Assembly (NCBI GenBank): GCA_947629315.1
Contig: CANRDB010000001.1
Location: forward strand, 4,829 to 68,828
DNA from: an uncultured Bacilli bacterium
Lineage (GTDB): Bacteria > Bacillota_I > Bacilli_A > RF39 > UBA660
Length of the DNA stretch: 64,000 nt
Reading direction: 5' to 3'
The notes under the pieces are model-generated. The model had not been told where the DNA came from, did no database searches, and was given only the letters and a program-made list of their open reading frames with translations. Below, in pieces: positions 21,123-24,796 of this stretch. Made by a program: the position numbers and the translations under genes. How positions within the stretch are numbered: the first letter of the stretch is position 1; every line of letters starts with the position of its first letter.

Positions 21123-23120
21123 TTGAATCAAAAAAGAGTGGCATTATATCTACGATTATCCAAAGAAGATATCGACAAGCCAACCAAGTTCTCTATCAGC
21201 GAAAGTATCAAAAATCAAGAACTATTACTGCGTGAAGAAGTGAAAAAACACCCTGATTGGGTCGTAGTAGCTGTCTATTCTGATGAAGACTTTTCAGGAG
21301 CAGGAACTTATCGACCAAGCTTTGACAAAATGATTCATGCCTGTGAAAAGCACATGATTGATATCATTCTCTGTAAAAGTCAGTCCCGTTTTTCTAGAGA
21401 TATGGAATTAATTGAAAAATATATTCATAACAAATTTAAAGAATGGAATATACGATTCATTAGTATCGTAGATAATGCCGATACTGATAACGATGGCAAT
21501 AAAAAATCTAGACAGATTAATGCTCTTGTCAATGAATGGTTTCTAGAGGATTTATCCGATAATATTCGGGCAACTTTACGAACAAAATGGCAGCATGGAG
21601 AATGTACCGCTGCTTTCGCTAAATATGGATTTCTAAAAGATCCCCAACATAAAAATCACCTAATCATAGATACGGTTGCTAGTCAAACCATTCAAGAAAT
21701 TGCTCATCTCTTTTTAGAGGGAAAAGGTCCAGAAACCATCGCTCACATTTTAGAACAGAAGCATATTCCTAGTCCTTATGAATACAAACTACAAATGGGA
21801 AGTAAACTAAAAATTCCTTTGCTTTCCTTAAACCATCCAAAAATAATTACTAAAAACGGAAAATATATTTTTACCCTTTTTCCAAGTGGAGAACCAATAG
21901 ACCATGTCGTCCTATCCATCCTACCATTTCAAGATTACGATATGACACTAACTCTCATAAAACAAAGTGGCAATGTAAAGGTTTATTATTCCCAGGAGAA
22001 ATTCTCTTCTGCTATCGAAACCGTATTGCCGGTTGAACATTCTTCATTTTGGAGACAATTGCCTATCAATCTTTCTATTTCTCATATTCAACTACTGGCT
22101 ATCTATTGTCTTCCAAACAATTTAGAAAAAACTTATTTAGAATGGGAAATAAACATCCATACCCTACCGTCTCATGATTTTTCTTTAAACATCCAATCCT
22201 TTGATGCAATACACCAACCAATTGATTTTTGGCAGTATCGAATCAGAAAAAAATATCAGTGGAATAGTCGGACAATCTATCACATTTTGAAAGATGAAAC
22301 TTATCATGGTACCTTAATTCAAGGAAAAACAAAGCGAATCAGTTATAAAAATCATACTAGTATTGCTACTCCCAAAGAGCAATGGTATGTTCAAGAAAAT
22401 ATTCTCCCTAAAATTCTAGATGATCAAACTTGGATAGCTATTCAAAATAAATTACAACTACATCCACGCGCAAGCAAAAATGGAAAACACCCTATCTTTA
22501 CTGGAAAAGTTTTTTGTGGAGTATGTGGAAAACCTCTTCAAAAAAACTCGAGCAGTTCTCTTGCTTCCCCTGTTAAAAAAGAATATTTAATTTGTAAAGC
22601 AAGAAAAGAACATTGGAAGAATTGTGAAAACAAAAAATCATTTCCCGTTTTAGAATTACAAAAATTAATCATTACTCAATTTCAAAATTTATGGAATTCC
22701 TATTACGATATGACTACCTTAAAGCAGATTCATAAGGAAGAACCCCATCATCAAACTATAGACGATCTCATGAAAGAAGAACAAAATTTACAAGAAATTA
22801 TCCAGCAGAATAACCAAATTCTTTATCAATTATACAAAGATAAAAGCACTGGCCTCATGGATGATTCTTGTTTTCATACCCTACTTCTACAAAATCAACA
22901 GGAAATGGATACTTATCACCAAAGATTGCAAATGATTGCCCAAGAGTTAAAACAGATTCAAACGAAACAGGAATTTTTCATGTCTACTGTGTGTGAATTT
23001 CTCAATACTCATTCCTTTGAAGACTATTTTTCAACCATTCTACAGCATTTTATTAGCAGCATTTTCATTGGAAAGCTGAACCATCATCAAAGAACAATCC
23101 AAATTCATTGGAAAATCTAA
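21123..23120 (+). CDS. Large serine recombinase 1 (resolvase/invertase catalytic domain plus recombinase, zinc-ribbon and coiled-coil domains), TTG start
   Basis: [13 protein letters not shown] (nucleophile Ser), [40 protein letters not shown], and a C-terminal CGVCGKPL...C zinc ribbon. About 60% identical to recombinase 2 over the catalytic domain. Confidence 0.85.
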
Positions 23121-23142
23121 TTTTGTGGTTTATGTCTTTGCA

Positions 23143-23266
23143 GCAACTGGTCCTACGGGGGCAACTGGTGCAACCGGTCCTACGGGGGCAACTGGTGCAA
23201 CCGGTCCTACTGGAGACATTGGTCCTACTGGTGATGTTGGTCCTACTGGTCCTACCGGAGCAACTG
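23143..23266 (+). other. Collagen-like gene fragment C2 (GXX repeats with no start codon), squeezed between two converging recombinase genes
   Basis: Frame-1 translation is [41 protein letters not shown], which then runs into element DNA ([11 protein letters not shown]). Track ORFs 23108..23407(+) are out-of-frame shadows of this repeat. Confidence 0.6.
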
Positions 23267-23281
23267 AACCTTATCTGTTTG

Positions 23282-24796
23282 TCAAAATATCCACTCTATA
23301 GTAACTACTCTTTTTCCCTGTTCTATATTGCCAATTTGTATTCGTTGAATAAAATTCTTTACCGTCTTAAGGGAAAGTTCAAGTTTTCTTTTAGAAAAAG
23401 AAAATGACATTTGTTCTTTTTTCATATTGGCAAGAGTATTTGATAACTTCTCTAACTCTTTGATATAACTTTTTTTGAGATTTTGAAAAACCTCATCATC
23501 TAGTTGTTGTTGAACATAATCGTCATACACTTTTTTTAAGCCTCGTTCTTTTTGATGGTAATCTTTTTCTAATCGTTCAAATTCTTTCTTATATAATAGA
23601 TTCTGTTCTATACTATATTGCTTCTCATATTCTAAAAGCAATTGTTCGTCGACAAATTGATGATAAAACTTCAAAAATTCTTTGAACACTAAAGATTCTA
23701 TCACATCCAAACGAATAGAGGTATGATTATCACAATGTTGCCAATAACTTCTTCTATCACGACAAACTAAATACGAATACACAGAATGGCTAGAAGAATT
23801 TTTTTCAAAGGATTGTCCACATTTTTGACAATATATTTTTTTACTAAACTCATAAATTTTACCCGTTTTAGATTGAATTCTCGTCTTTTGTTGCATTCTT
23901 CTTTGTACCTCATTCCACATCGATAAAGAAATAATCGGGTCATGCTGATGAGATACAACAATCCAATCCTTTTTTTGAAGAGAAATTACCTTTTTATTTT
24001 TATAGGAAATTTTTCGATATTTTCCCTGTACTACACTACCAATATACACTTCATTTTTTAAAATATCTGCAATTGTTTTTTCACTCCATTGATTACTAGT
24101 CGATGGTCCATAATATTTAGAACCTATTTCTTTTTTATATTGACTGGGAGTTGGAATCCCTTGATGATTCAAACACTGCTTAATTTTAGAATATCCATAA
24201 CCTTTCGCATATAACGCATATATTTGTTGAACATATTTAGAAGCAATCGGGTCAATTTCTAAATGATTTTTATCTTTCTTTTGGTAACCAAAAGGCGCAA
24301 AAGAACCGGTAAATAGACCAACTTCTTTTTTATTTCGTAATGTTTTACGAATATTTATAGAAGAATCTTCCAAATACCATTCATTCATCAAAGCATTGAT
24401 TTGTCTGGTTTTTTTATTTTCTTCTACAGAGGTATCAGCATGATCAACTAAACTGATAAAACGAACGTTCCACTCTTTAAATTTATTATGAATATATTGT
24501 TCAATTACTTCTAAATCTCTCGAAAAGCGAGACTGACTCTTACATAATACAATATCAATATTTCCTTGTTCACAATCTTTTAGCATGCGGATAAAAGCTG
24601 GTCTTTCTCTATCGATACCAGAGTAATCCTCATCAATATAAATATCAAAGATATCCCATCCTTCTTCTTGAACTTTTTGAAGTAACATTCTCCTTTGATT
24701 TTGAATACTTTCACTAAAGTCTTTTTTATCAATATCTTCTTTGGATAATCGCAAATAGATTGCTACTCTATTGTTCCCTATCATAAGATTCCTCAT
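23282..24796 (-). CDS. Large serine recombinase 2
   Basis: [55 protein letters not shown] and a CQKCGQSF...C zinc ribbon. Its 3' end abuts and overlaps the C2 collagen fragment. Confidence 0.85.

Follow-up and report, generated by a model that had tools for sequence, protein, structure and literature searches.

The stretch of DNA analysed here, hereafter the window, comprises 64,000 nucleotides of a contig from an uncultured Bacilli bacterium (assembly GCA_947629315.1, contig CANRDB010000001.1, positions 4,829 to 68,828), and it contains a collagen-like gene, extending from 18448 to 29834 on the + strand, whose coding sequence is distributed over four pieces separated by three DNA elements, A, B and C, each endowed with its own large serine recombinase. 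A scan of all six frames for G-x-y triplets locates the collagen-coding stretches of the + strand at 18535-18588, 23149-23265, 26094-26147 and 29445-29696. The first piece of the gene (18448..18701, + strand, 254 bp) provides the start codon, the N-terminal domain, a short GPT repeat and a first 'TIGT' domain, and runs up to ...IPAGA-T with the core dinucleotide AC at 18700-18701; it is part of an 89-codon open reading frame (ORF) at 18448..18717, and its N-terminus is orthologous to that of collagen genes in two related genomes, at the loci L003 and L091. The second piece, C2 (23148..23264, +), consists of 117 bp, or 39 codons of G-x-T triplets, and the third, C3 (26102..26146, +), of only 45 bp, or 15 codons, while the fourth (29444..29834, +, 391 bp) carries a long GPTGPTGD(V/I) array, the C-terminal 'TIGT' domain and the stop codon. 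In silico removal of the intervening segments 18702..23147, 23265..26101 and 26147..29443 gives a single ORF of 807 nt and 268 codons, in which the N-terminal domain is followed by the short repeat, the 'TIGT' domain, a long GPT/GAT/GD(V/I) array and the C-terminal 'TIGT...' domain. The rebuilt protein matches the collagen triple-helix repeat (PF01391) at 6.6e-21, its C-terminus is the normal ending of intact family members and of the L091 ortholog, and no signal peptide is recognized in it by eye.

That three separate recombinase elements with an AC core reside in this one collagen-like gene is, in our judgement, close to certain. Each of them comprises a single cargo gene and a large serine recombinase gene of its own, with a small ORF upstream of the recombinase in B and C. 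Specifically, element A (18702..23147, 4446 bp) carries on the − strand, at 18743..20977, a gene for a 744-aa acyltransferase_3 protein with an SGNH-like tail, matching Pfam PF01757 at 2.7e-22 and PHROG 6705 (O-antigen acetylase) at 4.6e-33 and resembling an O-antigen or glycan O-acetyltransferase, and on the + strand the recombinase gene rec1 (21123..23120, 665 aa, TTG start). Element B (23265..26101, 2837 bp) is occupied on the − strand by a 342-aa membrane protein with zinc-ribbon motifs (24984..26012), by a 49-codon ORF (24768..24917) and by rec2 (23282..24796, 504 aa), whose start is overlapped by the small ORF. Element C (26147..29443, 3297 bp) encodes on the + strand a protein of 464 aa, hydrophobic in an N-terminal segment and bearing KVQEAE / ETKQ repeats, for which no family match was obtained (26257..27651), followed by a 29-codon ORF (27735..27824) just upstream of rec3 (27831..29420, 529 aa). 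B and C are bordered by terminal inverted repeats, TTTTGACAA...TTGTCAAAA in the former and AAAGTGGCAC / GTGCCACTTT in the latter, which a generic repeat finder lists independently (as I2 and I8), and the right junction of C recurs in an independent metagenome contig (L001).

All three recombinases display, in a domain search, the Resolvase (PF00239), Recombinase (PF07508) and Zn_ribbon_recom (PF13408) domains, the last two above their cutoffs. The Ser nucleophile, placed by the Y-x-R-L-S motif, is found at residue 13 of rec1, 18 of rec2 and 21 of rec3, and the zinc-ribbon region of each protein holds at least four Cys; in other words, nucleophile and the four zinc-ribbon cysteines are kept in all three, and the inactive enzyme that the original prediction for this DNA had contemplated is not encountered. 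That prediction concerned rec1 and rec2, described as two related genes about 60% identical and converging on the collagen fragment C2, and in this respect it holds well: identity over the catalytic domain is 62% (90/145 aligned residues), the stop codons of the convergent genes are 161 bp apart, exactly 117 bp separate the two crossover points (23148..23264), and the C2 reading frame does run into element B, where it stops at 23301 after covering the last 20 bases of rec2. Rec1 and rec2 share 54% identity over their first 231 residues and 29-30% over the C-terminal part. Rec3, with 30-33% identity to either of them in the catalytic domain, is by sequence comparison a member of another clade. 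Between rec2 and its ortholog at L003 the ratio of nonsynonymous to synonymous substitution rates (dN/dS) is 0.11, for rec3 it is 0.15, and for the 49-codon ORF, again compared with L003, it is 0.14 over 47 codons, values which indicate that the recombinases and this small ORF are under purifying selection. Short ORFs of a similar kind, bearing the motif EELKxxFNxKLL, are also found 5′ of the recombinases at L014, L088 and L094, and a 29-aa gene is called at the place equivalent to the 29-codon ORF at L096 and L097 (57% identity, dN/dS 0.31). These conserved upstream ORFs, for which Pfam, NCBIfam and PHROGs return no matches in the case of B and C, are candidate accessory or directionality factors. 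The closest named protein found is TndX, with 34.6% identity over 69% of rec2. A prophage origin of the elements was considered and discarded, as no phage genes lie inside them and rec2 and rec3 have no close relatives in IMG/VR; the best matches to the recombinases in phage collections, at no more than 40% identity, are on unannotated faecal scaffolds. In addition, the recombinase domain of rec1 is enlarged at residues ~236-378 (window 21828..22256) by some 145 inserted aa, which rec2 and rec3 lack and which are common to relatives of 630-700 aa (L014, L088, L094 and the second recombinase of L005).

The crossover point was placed at the AC inside GCA-AC-TG, and the bounds of the elements were set from it. 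Each time, insertion took place at the AC with which a Thr codon begins in GCA-AC-TGG, and the boundaries of the elements bear the heptamer GCAACTG, reduced to ACTG in the case of C. The attP site of an element was reconstructed by joining its right end to its left end, attB by joining the two host flanks, and symmetry was scored as the number of complementary matches between the 24-nt arms on either side of the AC. Scored in this way, the attP of A reaches 19/24, that of B 17/24 and that of C 18/24, to be compared with only 5-9/24 at the single junctions attL and attR and with a window background, over some 21,000 positions, of 6.5 on average (standard deviation 2.2, maximum 17). Elements at L014 (5139 bp), L091 (5016 bp) and L094 (2978 bp) attain 18-19/24. 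The predicted attP sites thus carry the signature of serine integrases, and since the palindrome appears only when the ends of the same element are joined, each recombinase can be assigned to its own element. The element attP has the palindromic form ...CA-AC-TG..., and the attB offered by the collagen repeat reads GGTCCTACNGGAGCA-AC-TGGTCC. The junctions predicted for the excised states are CCTGCAGGAGCAACTGGTCCTACGGGG (attB) and GTCTTTGCAGCAACTGATGCTATGTC (attP) for A, CCTACCGGAGCAACTGGTCCAGTAGG and AACTATGGAGCAACTGAACCTTATCT for B, and CCTACGGGTCCTACTGGTTCTACTGG and GGTTTGCAACTGCACTCACTT for C.

The repeat structure anticipated around the locus by the original prediction is therefore clearly present, as terminal inverted repeats and as attP symmetry. 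The host-side strings flanking the two recombinase genes are also there, GCAACTGGTCC at 23143-23153 and GGAGCAACTG at 23257-23266 (reverse complement CAGTTGCTCC), but they are not reverse complements in full as had been stated, only the 7-mer GCAACTG being shared. Similarly, the suggestion that the same family inserted twice in opposite orientation is right in that A and B are separate insertions with their own attL and attR, but it overlooked the third element, with its recombinase of another clade; the identity of the ORF at 18448..18717 as the first piece of the gene and the pair of attachment sites proper to each recombinase were likewise absent from it.

A junction table was compiled from the window and 12 other loci, comprising 13 left and 9 right junctions. 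All 22 have AC as their core when read along the sense strand of the collagen gene; the host-left consensus is GGtCCtACnGGaGCa followed by AC, the host-right consensus is AC followed by TGGtCCtAnnGGnCC, and the element ends conform to ...CA-AC-TG.... At L098 the two junctions share AC and nothing else, which pins down the crossover. Moreover, when target-like 14-mers were searched in the 64-kb window with a loose pattern, nine out of ten fell inside the collagen-like gene: the collagen array is the only dense source of target in the region, and for this reason the three elements have collected there.

Relatives of rec1 and rec2 were gathered by a genome scan (L003-L007), a metagenome scan (L014-L016) and homologue look-ups (L088-L095), and in every informative case collagen repeats occur 15-60 bp past the recombinase gene, in either orientation, with a CAACTG junction. 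The same arrangement is found with relatives of rec3, at 76% identity (L096/097) and at 66% (L098-101); in genomes of other gut Bacilli, relatives from both clades occupy collagen-like genes at this motif. More distant recombinases (38% identity or less), recovered by a metagenome scan with an alignment of the three recombinases, have no collagen repeats nearby. At L014, removal of the element rebuilds a protein with a BclA C-terminal domain scoring 35.2 bits, below the cutoff of 38, and at L096 the downstream piece of the interrupted gene has a precomputed BclA_C match. In a further set of loci (L103-L107, at about 9001..9430), an N-terminal collagen fragment ends in GGACCT-AC-TGctcgatt and is followed by genes for uracil phosphoribosyltransferase (UPRTase) and uracil permease, the same cargo as in the L091 element; these may represent decayed or much larger elements, and some lineages may hold dead insertions. 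A database search with the N-terminal domain retrieved 93 homologues (P0257-P0349), all of 68-146 aa and some of them complete small proteins. At least 24 of the 93 end a few codons past a G-x-T triplet with recurring tails (ARLF.., ARCNKSSIY.., ETYKS.., ..KKWH.. and HTLxSESK), which suggests that many more types of element are inserted in this collagen-like gene family. As a separate observation, the rabbit-gut metagenome-assembled genome (MAG) of L005 harbours, at 3008..7069, two neighbouring collagen-like genes each with a serine-recombinase element; of the two recombinases, one shows 40% identity to rec2, and full-length alignment of the second with rec1 gives 46%.

The most informative comparison is offered by L091, a 183-kb contig of the rabbit-gut MAG GCA_947628235.1 that is syntenic with the window. 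Protein identity between the two amounts to 97% for GerE, 95% for enolase, 88% for SerS, 84% for FtsK, 78% for SpoIIIAH, 66% for GerM and 64% for the glycosyltransferase. The L091 collagen-like gene holds one B-type element, with ends matching those of B (TTTTGACAATGAACTATG...), encoding, besides an ortholog of the B cargo (74% identity) and a recombinase with some 49% identity to rec2, both a uracil permease and a UPRTase. At L003, in another rabbit-gut MAG, an 86% identical rec2 ortholog sits at the same kind of junction. Both orthologs carry B-type elements and lack A and C. Between the window and L091 the synonymous divergence (dS) of the B cargo is 0.93, close to that of host genes (0.82 to 1.33), which fits a long co-residence of element and host. 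The L091 gene, once rebuilt, is intact over 353 codons, and its comparison with the rebuilt gene of the window gives a dN/dS of 0.14 for the N-terminal 84 codons and of 0.13 for the C-terminal 46 codons, figures obtained from few sites and with dS near saturation. The C-terminal 46 codons, for which dS is about 1.4, lie downstream of every insertion. Such values are as expected if the split gene were still used and, if the gene is in use, excision is required; on this evidence we lean towards a collagen-like gene that remains functional through excision.

The neighbourhood of the gene would be compatible with such a use. The window is chromosomal, as it includes genes for RNase Y, RecA, MreCD, FtsK, enolase, SerS, PolA, Ddl and MurF. 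Upstream of the collagen gene are found a SpoIIIAH-like gene (12616..13113, at 5.3-5.8 kb; 49.7 bits versus a cutoff of 30.6), a gene for a 68-aa GerE-type regulator (13195..13401, at about 5 kb) and one for a GerM-like protein with two Germane domains (13449..14405, at 4-5 kb). This trio, located between enolase and the collagen locus, is kept in L091 and in L103-L107, and its gene content suggests, short of proof, that the host forms endospores and that the neighbourhood is related to sporulation; no core spo operon is found within the window. Immediately downstream, a family-2 glycosyltransferase with tetratricopeptide repeats (29840..30925, +) starts 5 bases after the collagen stop codon and is likely an operon partner of the collagen-like gene; homologues of it adjoin collagen-like genes at L014, L091 and L098. 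Matches to sigma-70-like promoters are no commoner than in shuffled sequence. Between the GerM-like gene and the collagen gene lies a SecA-like gene (14652..18366), interrupted by a frameshift between about 15293 and 15337, near an A-run, and read as ORFs of 238 and 988 aa; its orthologs in L091 and L003 each form one unbroken frame of 1124-1151 aa, with 38-59% identity, in keeping with a fast-evolving gene, and the frameshift could be that of a pseudogene or a sequencing error.

A few further features of the region deserve mention. At the right end of element B an ATG at 26085 is in frame with the downstream collagen piece (ATGAACTATGGAGCA-ACTGGT) and is kept in L091; an independent translation of the downstream pieces from this codon was judged unlikely, as it has no Shine-Dalgarno sequence and sits in the recombinase-binding arm. 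Two other G-x-y runs of the + strand, at 31688-31867 and 38771-38872, arise where the opposite, − strand codes for stretches rich in Pro, Val and Ala, and were rejected as collagen genes: the false signals come from a 312-aa Pro/Val/Ala-rich membrane protein (30961..31899, −) and from a clostripain-family (C11) peptidase (36709..38907, −). A class B sortase is encoded at 39580..40512.

Taken together, these findings lead us to propose, with a probability of roughly 0.55 for the statement as a whole, functional excision included, that a BclA-like gene is rebuilt when A, B and C, as intervening elements of the skin type, are excised, the gene at 18448 to 29834 being probably that of a spore-surface protein. 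According to this proposal, three mini integrative elements would have inserted independently in one collagen-like gene, each by conservative recombination between its own palindromic attP and an attB provided by the collagen repeat, at the AC of a Thr codon. Each recombinase would serve its own element and would also excise it precisely, possibly aided by the small upstream ORF as directionality factor; alternatively, like TndX (PMC4430133), the enzymes might need no cofactor for either direction of the reaction. Three excisions would restore the 268-codon gene. If skin, SPbeta, gin and yin are a guide, excision could take place at sporulation in the terminally differentiated mother cell, so that the elements would be retained in the germ-line chromosome of the forespore. 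That excision is specific to sporulation has, in our view, somewhat less than an even chance. More tentatively still, the two recombinase clades might be specialised on the codon motif (A/P)-T-G of collagen repeats, read as NCA-AC-TGG, and act as stacked developmental switches: up to three mini-elements would be excised in the mother cell to rebuild a spore-surface gene and to re-couple it with the glycosyltransferase, and partial excision would give rise to shorter fibres.

Other explanations of the locus were weighed against this one. The original prediction envisaged that rec1 and rec2 jointly invert or delete the segment around C2 through inverted sites, and it is true that the genes converge, that the host strings next to them share GCAACTG and that a 47-nt inverted repeat with 83% complementarity, detected by the repeat finder at 21132-21178 / 24726-24772, arises from their 5′ ends. 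This repeat could in principle permit a homologous inversion of the intervening 3.5 kb, but it is merely the homologous coding sequence of the two 5′ ends. Serine recombinases do not religate sites whose central dinucleotides are antiparallel. All six cores of A, B and C read AC along the + strand and are therefore directly oriented, and no inverted pair of sites flanks C2; given that the central dinucleotide sets polarity for these enzymes (PMC5595907), only deletion, and no inversion, is expected between the sites. Moreover, arm symmetry pairs the ends of the same element and not sites across C2. Rec1 and rec2 converge because B lies opposite to A, and the orientation of B, opposite to A and C, whose recombinases are co-directional with the collagen gene, reflects only a reversed polarity of attP relative to the recombinase gene. 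Core polarity and end pairing therefore contradict the joint switch, to which we assign a negligible likelihood. It is also quite improbable, if less so, that the arrangement is a chimera of assembly, in which A, B and C reside in the same gene of different strains and were threaded together via the shared collagen repeats. Every junction has a clean structure of core plus arm, the C junction is reproduced in an independent assembly, L005 also has two recombinase elements in neighbouring collagen-like genes, and C3, with its 45 bp, is spanned by single reads and by ordinary k-mers, which makes the linkage of B and C safe. The same reassurance does not extend to the linkage of A to B through C2, as 117 bp exceed common assembly k-mers and the source is probably a short-read MAG, judging from its relatives, which are 'Lapin' rabbit-gut MAGs with contig names in SPAdes style.

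Two biological alternatives carry more weight. The stronger, which we nevertheless rate as unlikely, is that the elements are purely selfish: active TndX/TnpX-like mini-transposons for which the collagen repeat is a multi-copy safe harbour in a dispensable, inactivated gene, and whose excision, if any, serves element transfer only, with no reliance of the host on it. Consistent with this, TndX, the nearest named relative, integrates and excises alone and targets a protein-coding motif; the cargo looks like ordinary accessory genes, as exemplified by an O-acetyltransferase of the kind that phages carry as morons; and L103-L107 have the appearance of dead-end insertions. What such a view has difficulty in accommodating is that the split gene is intact in the window and in L091, even though the B-type cargo has diverged as much as host genes, and that the distal 46 codons show the dN/dS of 0.13 given above at a dS of about 1.4, when a gene dead since before the split of the two lineages should have decayed. 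Furthermore, searches of the element proteins against Pfam, NCBIfam and PHROG revealed no Mob, relaxase or transfer domains in A, B or C, and no mobilisation or transfer genes were found in any element. The other alternative is stochastic phase or length variation, by low-frequency excision and re-integration in growing cells with alternation between truncated and full 268-aa forms. It would profit from the bidirectionality of TndX-type recombinases without a cofactor and from the fact that each integrated state predicts a different in-frame product ending a few codons into the next element, the 89-aa product having the layout (N-domain, repeat and TIGT-domain) of complete small family members. 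An excised circle without replication origin, on the other hand, would be lost on division, resulting in a one-way switch in a growing lineage; no evidence of mixed alleles is at hand, and inspection of the sequence finds neither the signal peptide nor the wall anchor expected of a vegetative surface protein. We consider this alternative improbable. Several observations also weigh directly against the excision of skin-like elements that we favour. Neither an excised allele (attB) nor a circular junction (attP) was seen in the sequences searched, and degenerate attP patterns of the B and C types found no match, hence no free or circular form, in viral contigs. Regular expressions for the sigma-E and sigma-K consensus gave no convincing promoter upstream of the recombinases and of the collagen gene; a lone sigma-K-like match with one mismatch, upstream of the latter, is not conserved in L003. 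As the orthologous sites in L003 and L091 are uninterrupted, A and C give the impression of newly gained, active mobile elements and not of long-domesticated ones, which suits selfish elements as well, and the B-type element may have been re-inserted horizontally instead of having resided in the gene for long. No recognisable directionality factor was found in the elements, and in A there is no small ORF upstream of rec1. The rebuilt protein of the window has no match to BclA_C (PF18573), the element-type sequence of L103-L107 has no recombinase within 9 kb, and the frameshift of the adjacent SecA-like gene, which also suits selfish elements, hints at local decay.

If excision is real and developmental, the known range of intervening elements, so far single and of prophage size, would come to include stacked minimal ones; their targets, so far unique sites, would include a repeated codon motif, and the genes that they interrupt would include the spore-surface collagen genes of uncultured gut bacteria. 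Should the stacked-switch reading be true, no developmental gene with several interruptions would have been described before it in Bacillota, and nature would have supplied with it a group of small, mutually orthogonal integrases with a single common core. Real excision would also explain why many collagen-like genes in MAGs look truncated. From a practical point of view, these are compact serine integrases with predicted attP and attB sites of about 50 bp, a common AC core and differing arms, a combination suited to studies of site selection and orthogonality. Even if they were only selfish, the elements would still constitute a recombinase-element family with a well-defined hotspot inside coding repeats.

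A comparison with known systems helps to place the locus. Developmentally excised elements with serine recombinases are established in spore formers, where intervening elements interrupt sporulation genes in the pairs skin/sigK, SPbeta/spsM, vfbin/spoVFB, vrin/spoVR, gin/gerE and yin/yabG (PMC5595907, PMC4191935, PMC10747680). The window resembles them in that an element with a large serine recombinase splits a probably sporulation-tied ORF which precise excision would restore, in that a central dinucleotide is flanked at the attachment sites by the arms of an imperfect inverted repeat, and in the small, putatively accessory gene beside the recombinase. It differs in that the known elements are single and prophage-like or large (28.6 kb in the case of gin), whereas here three one-cargo elements of 2.8-4.4 kb, with recombinases of two clades, follow one another in a single gene; moreover, the target is a repeated codon motif offering many alternative sites, and excision in the window is deduced. 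Among the TndX and TnpX elements of clostridia (Tn5397 and Tn4451/Tn4453), TndX prefers a site inside a protein-coding motif, that of a Fic domain, with a GA core (PMC4430133). These too are non-phage elements, in which one large serine recombinase is sufficient for integration and excision; yet their central dinucleotide is GA and not the AC of all 22 junctions, they carry transfer or mobilisation and resistance genes, neither of which is present in A, B or C, and their sequence identity is low. In the literature, we found no paper linking collagen-like genes with large serine recombinases and no report of multiply interrupted developmental genes in Bacillota. BclA-type glycoproteins share with the protein of the window the G-x-T repeats, the absence of a signal peptide (by eye) and an adjacent glycosyltransferase, and interrupted relatives do have BclA_C; the window protein ends instead in a 46-aa 'TIGT...' domain, and its location on the spore is predicted. 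The closest parallel to several interruptions in one developmental gene is offered by heterocystous cyanobacteria, with the fdxN element and its recombinase XisF and with fragmented nif genes (PMC4874684, PMC11249958). The family of XisF is only weakly matched by our three recombinases (68-92 bits versus a cutoff of 375), and the cyanobacterial elements belong to another phylum and another developmental programme, with a target that is no repeat motif. Nevertheless, they too are recombinase-bearing, in some cases with serine recombinases, they can be as small as about 1 kb, several of them may occupy one gene or cluster, and the genes that they interrupt are needed only in a terminally differentiated cell.

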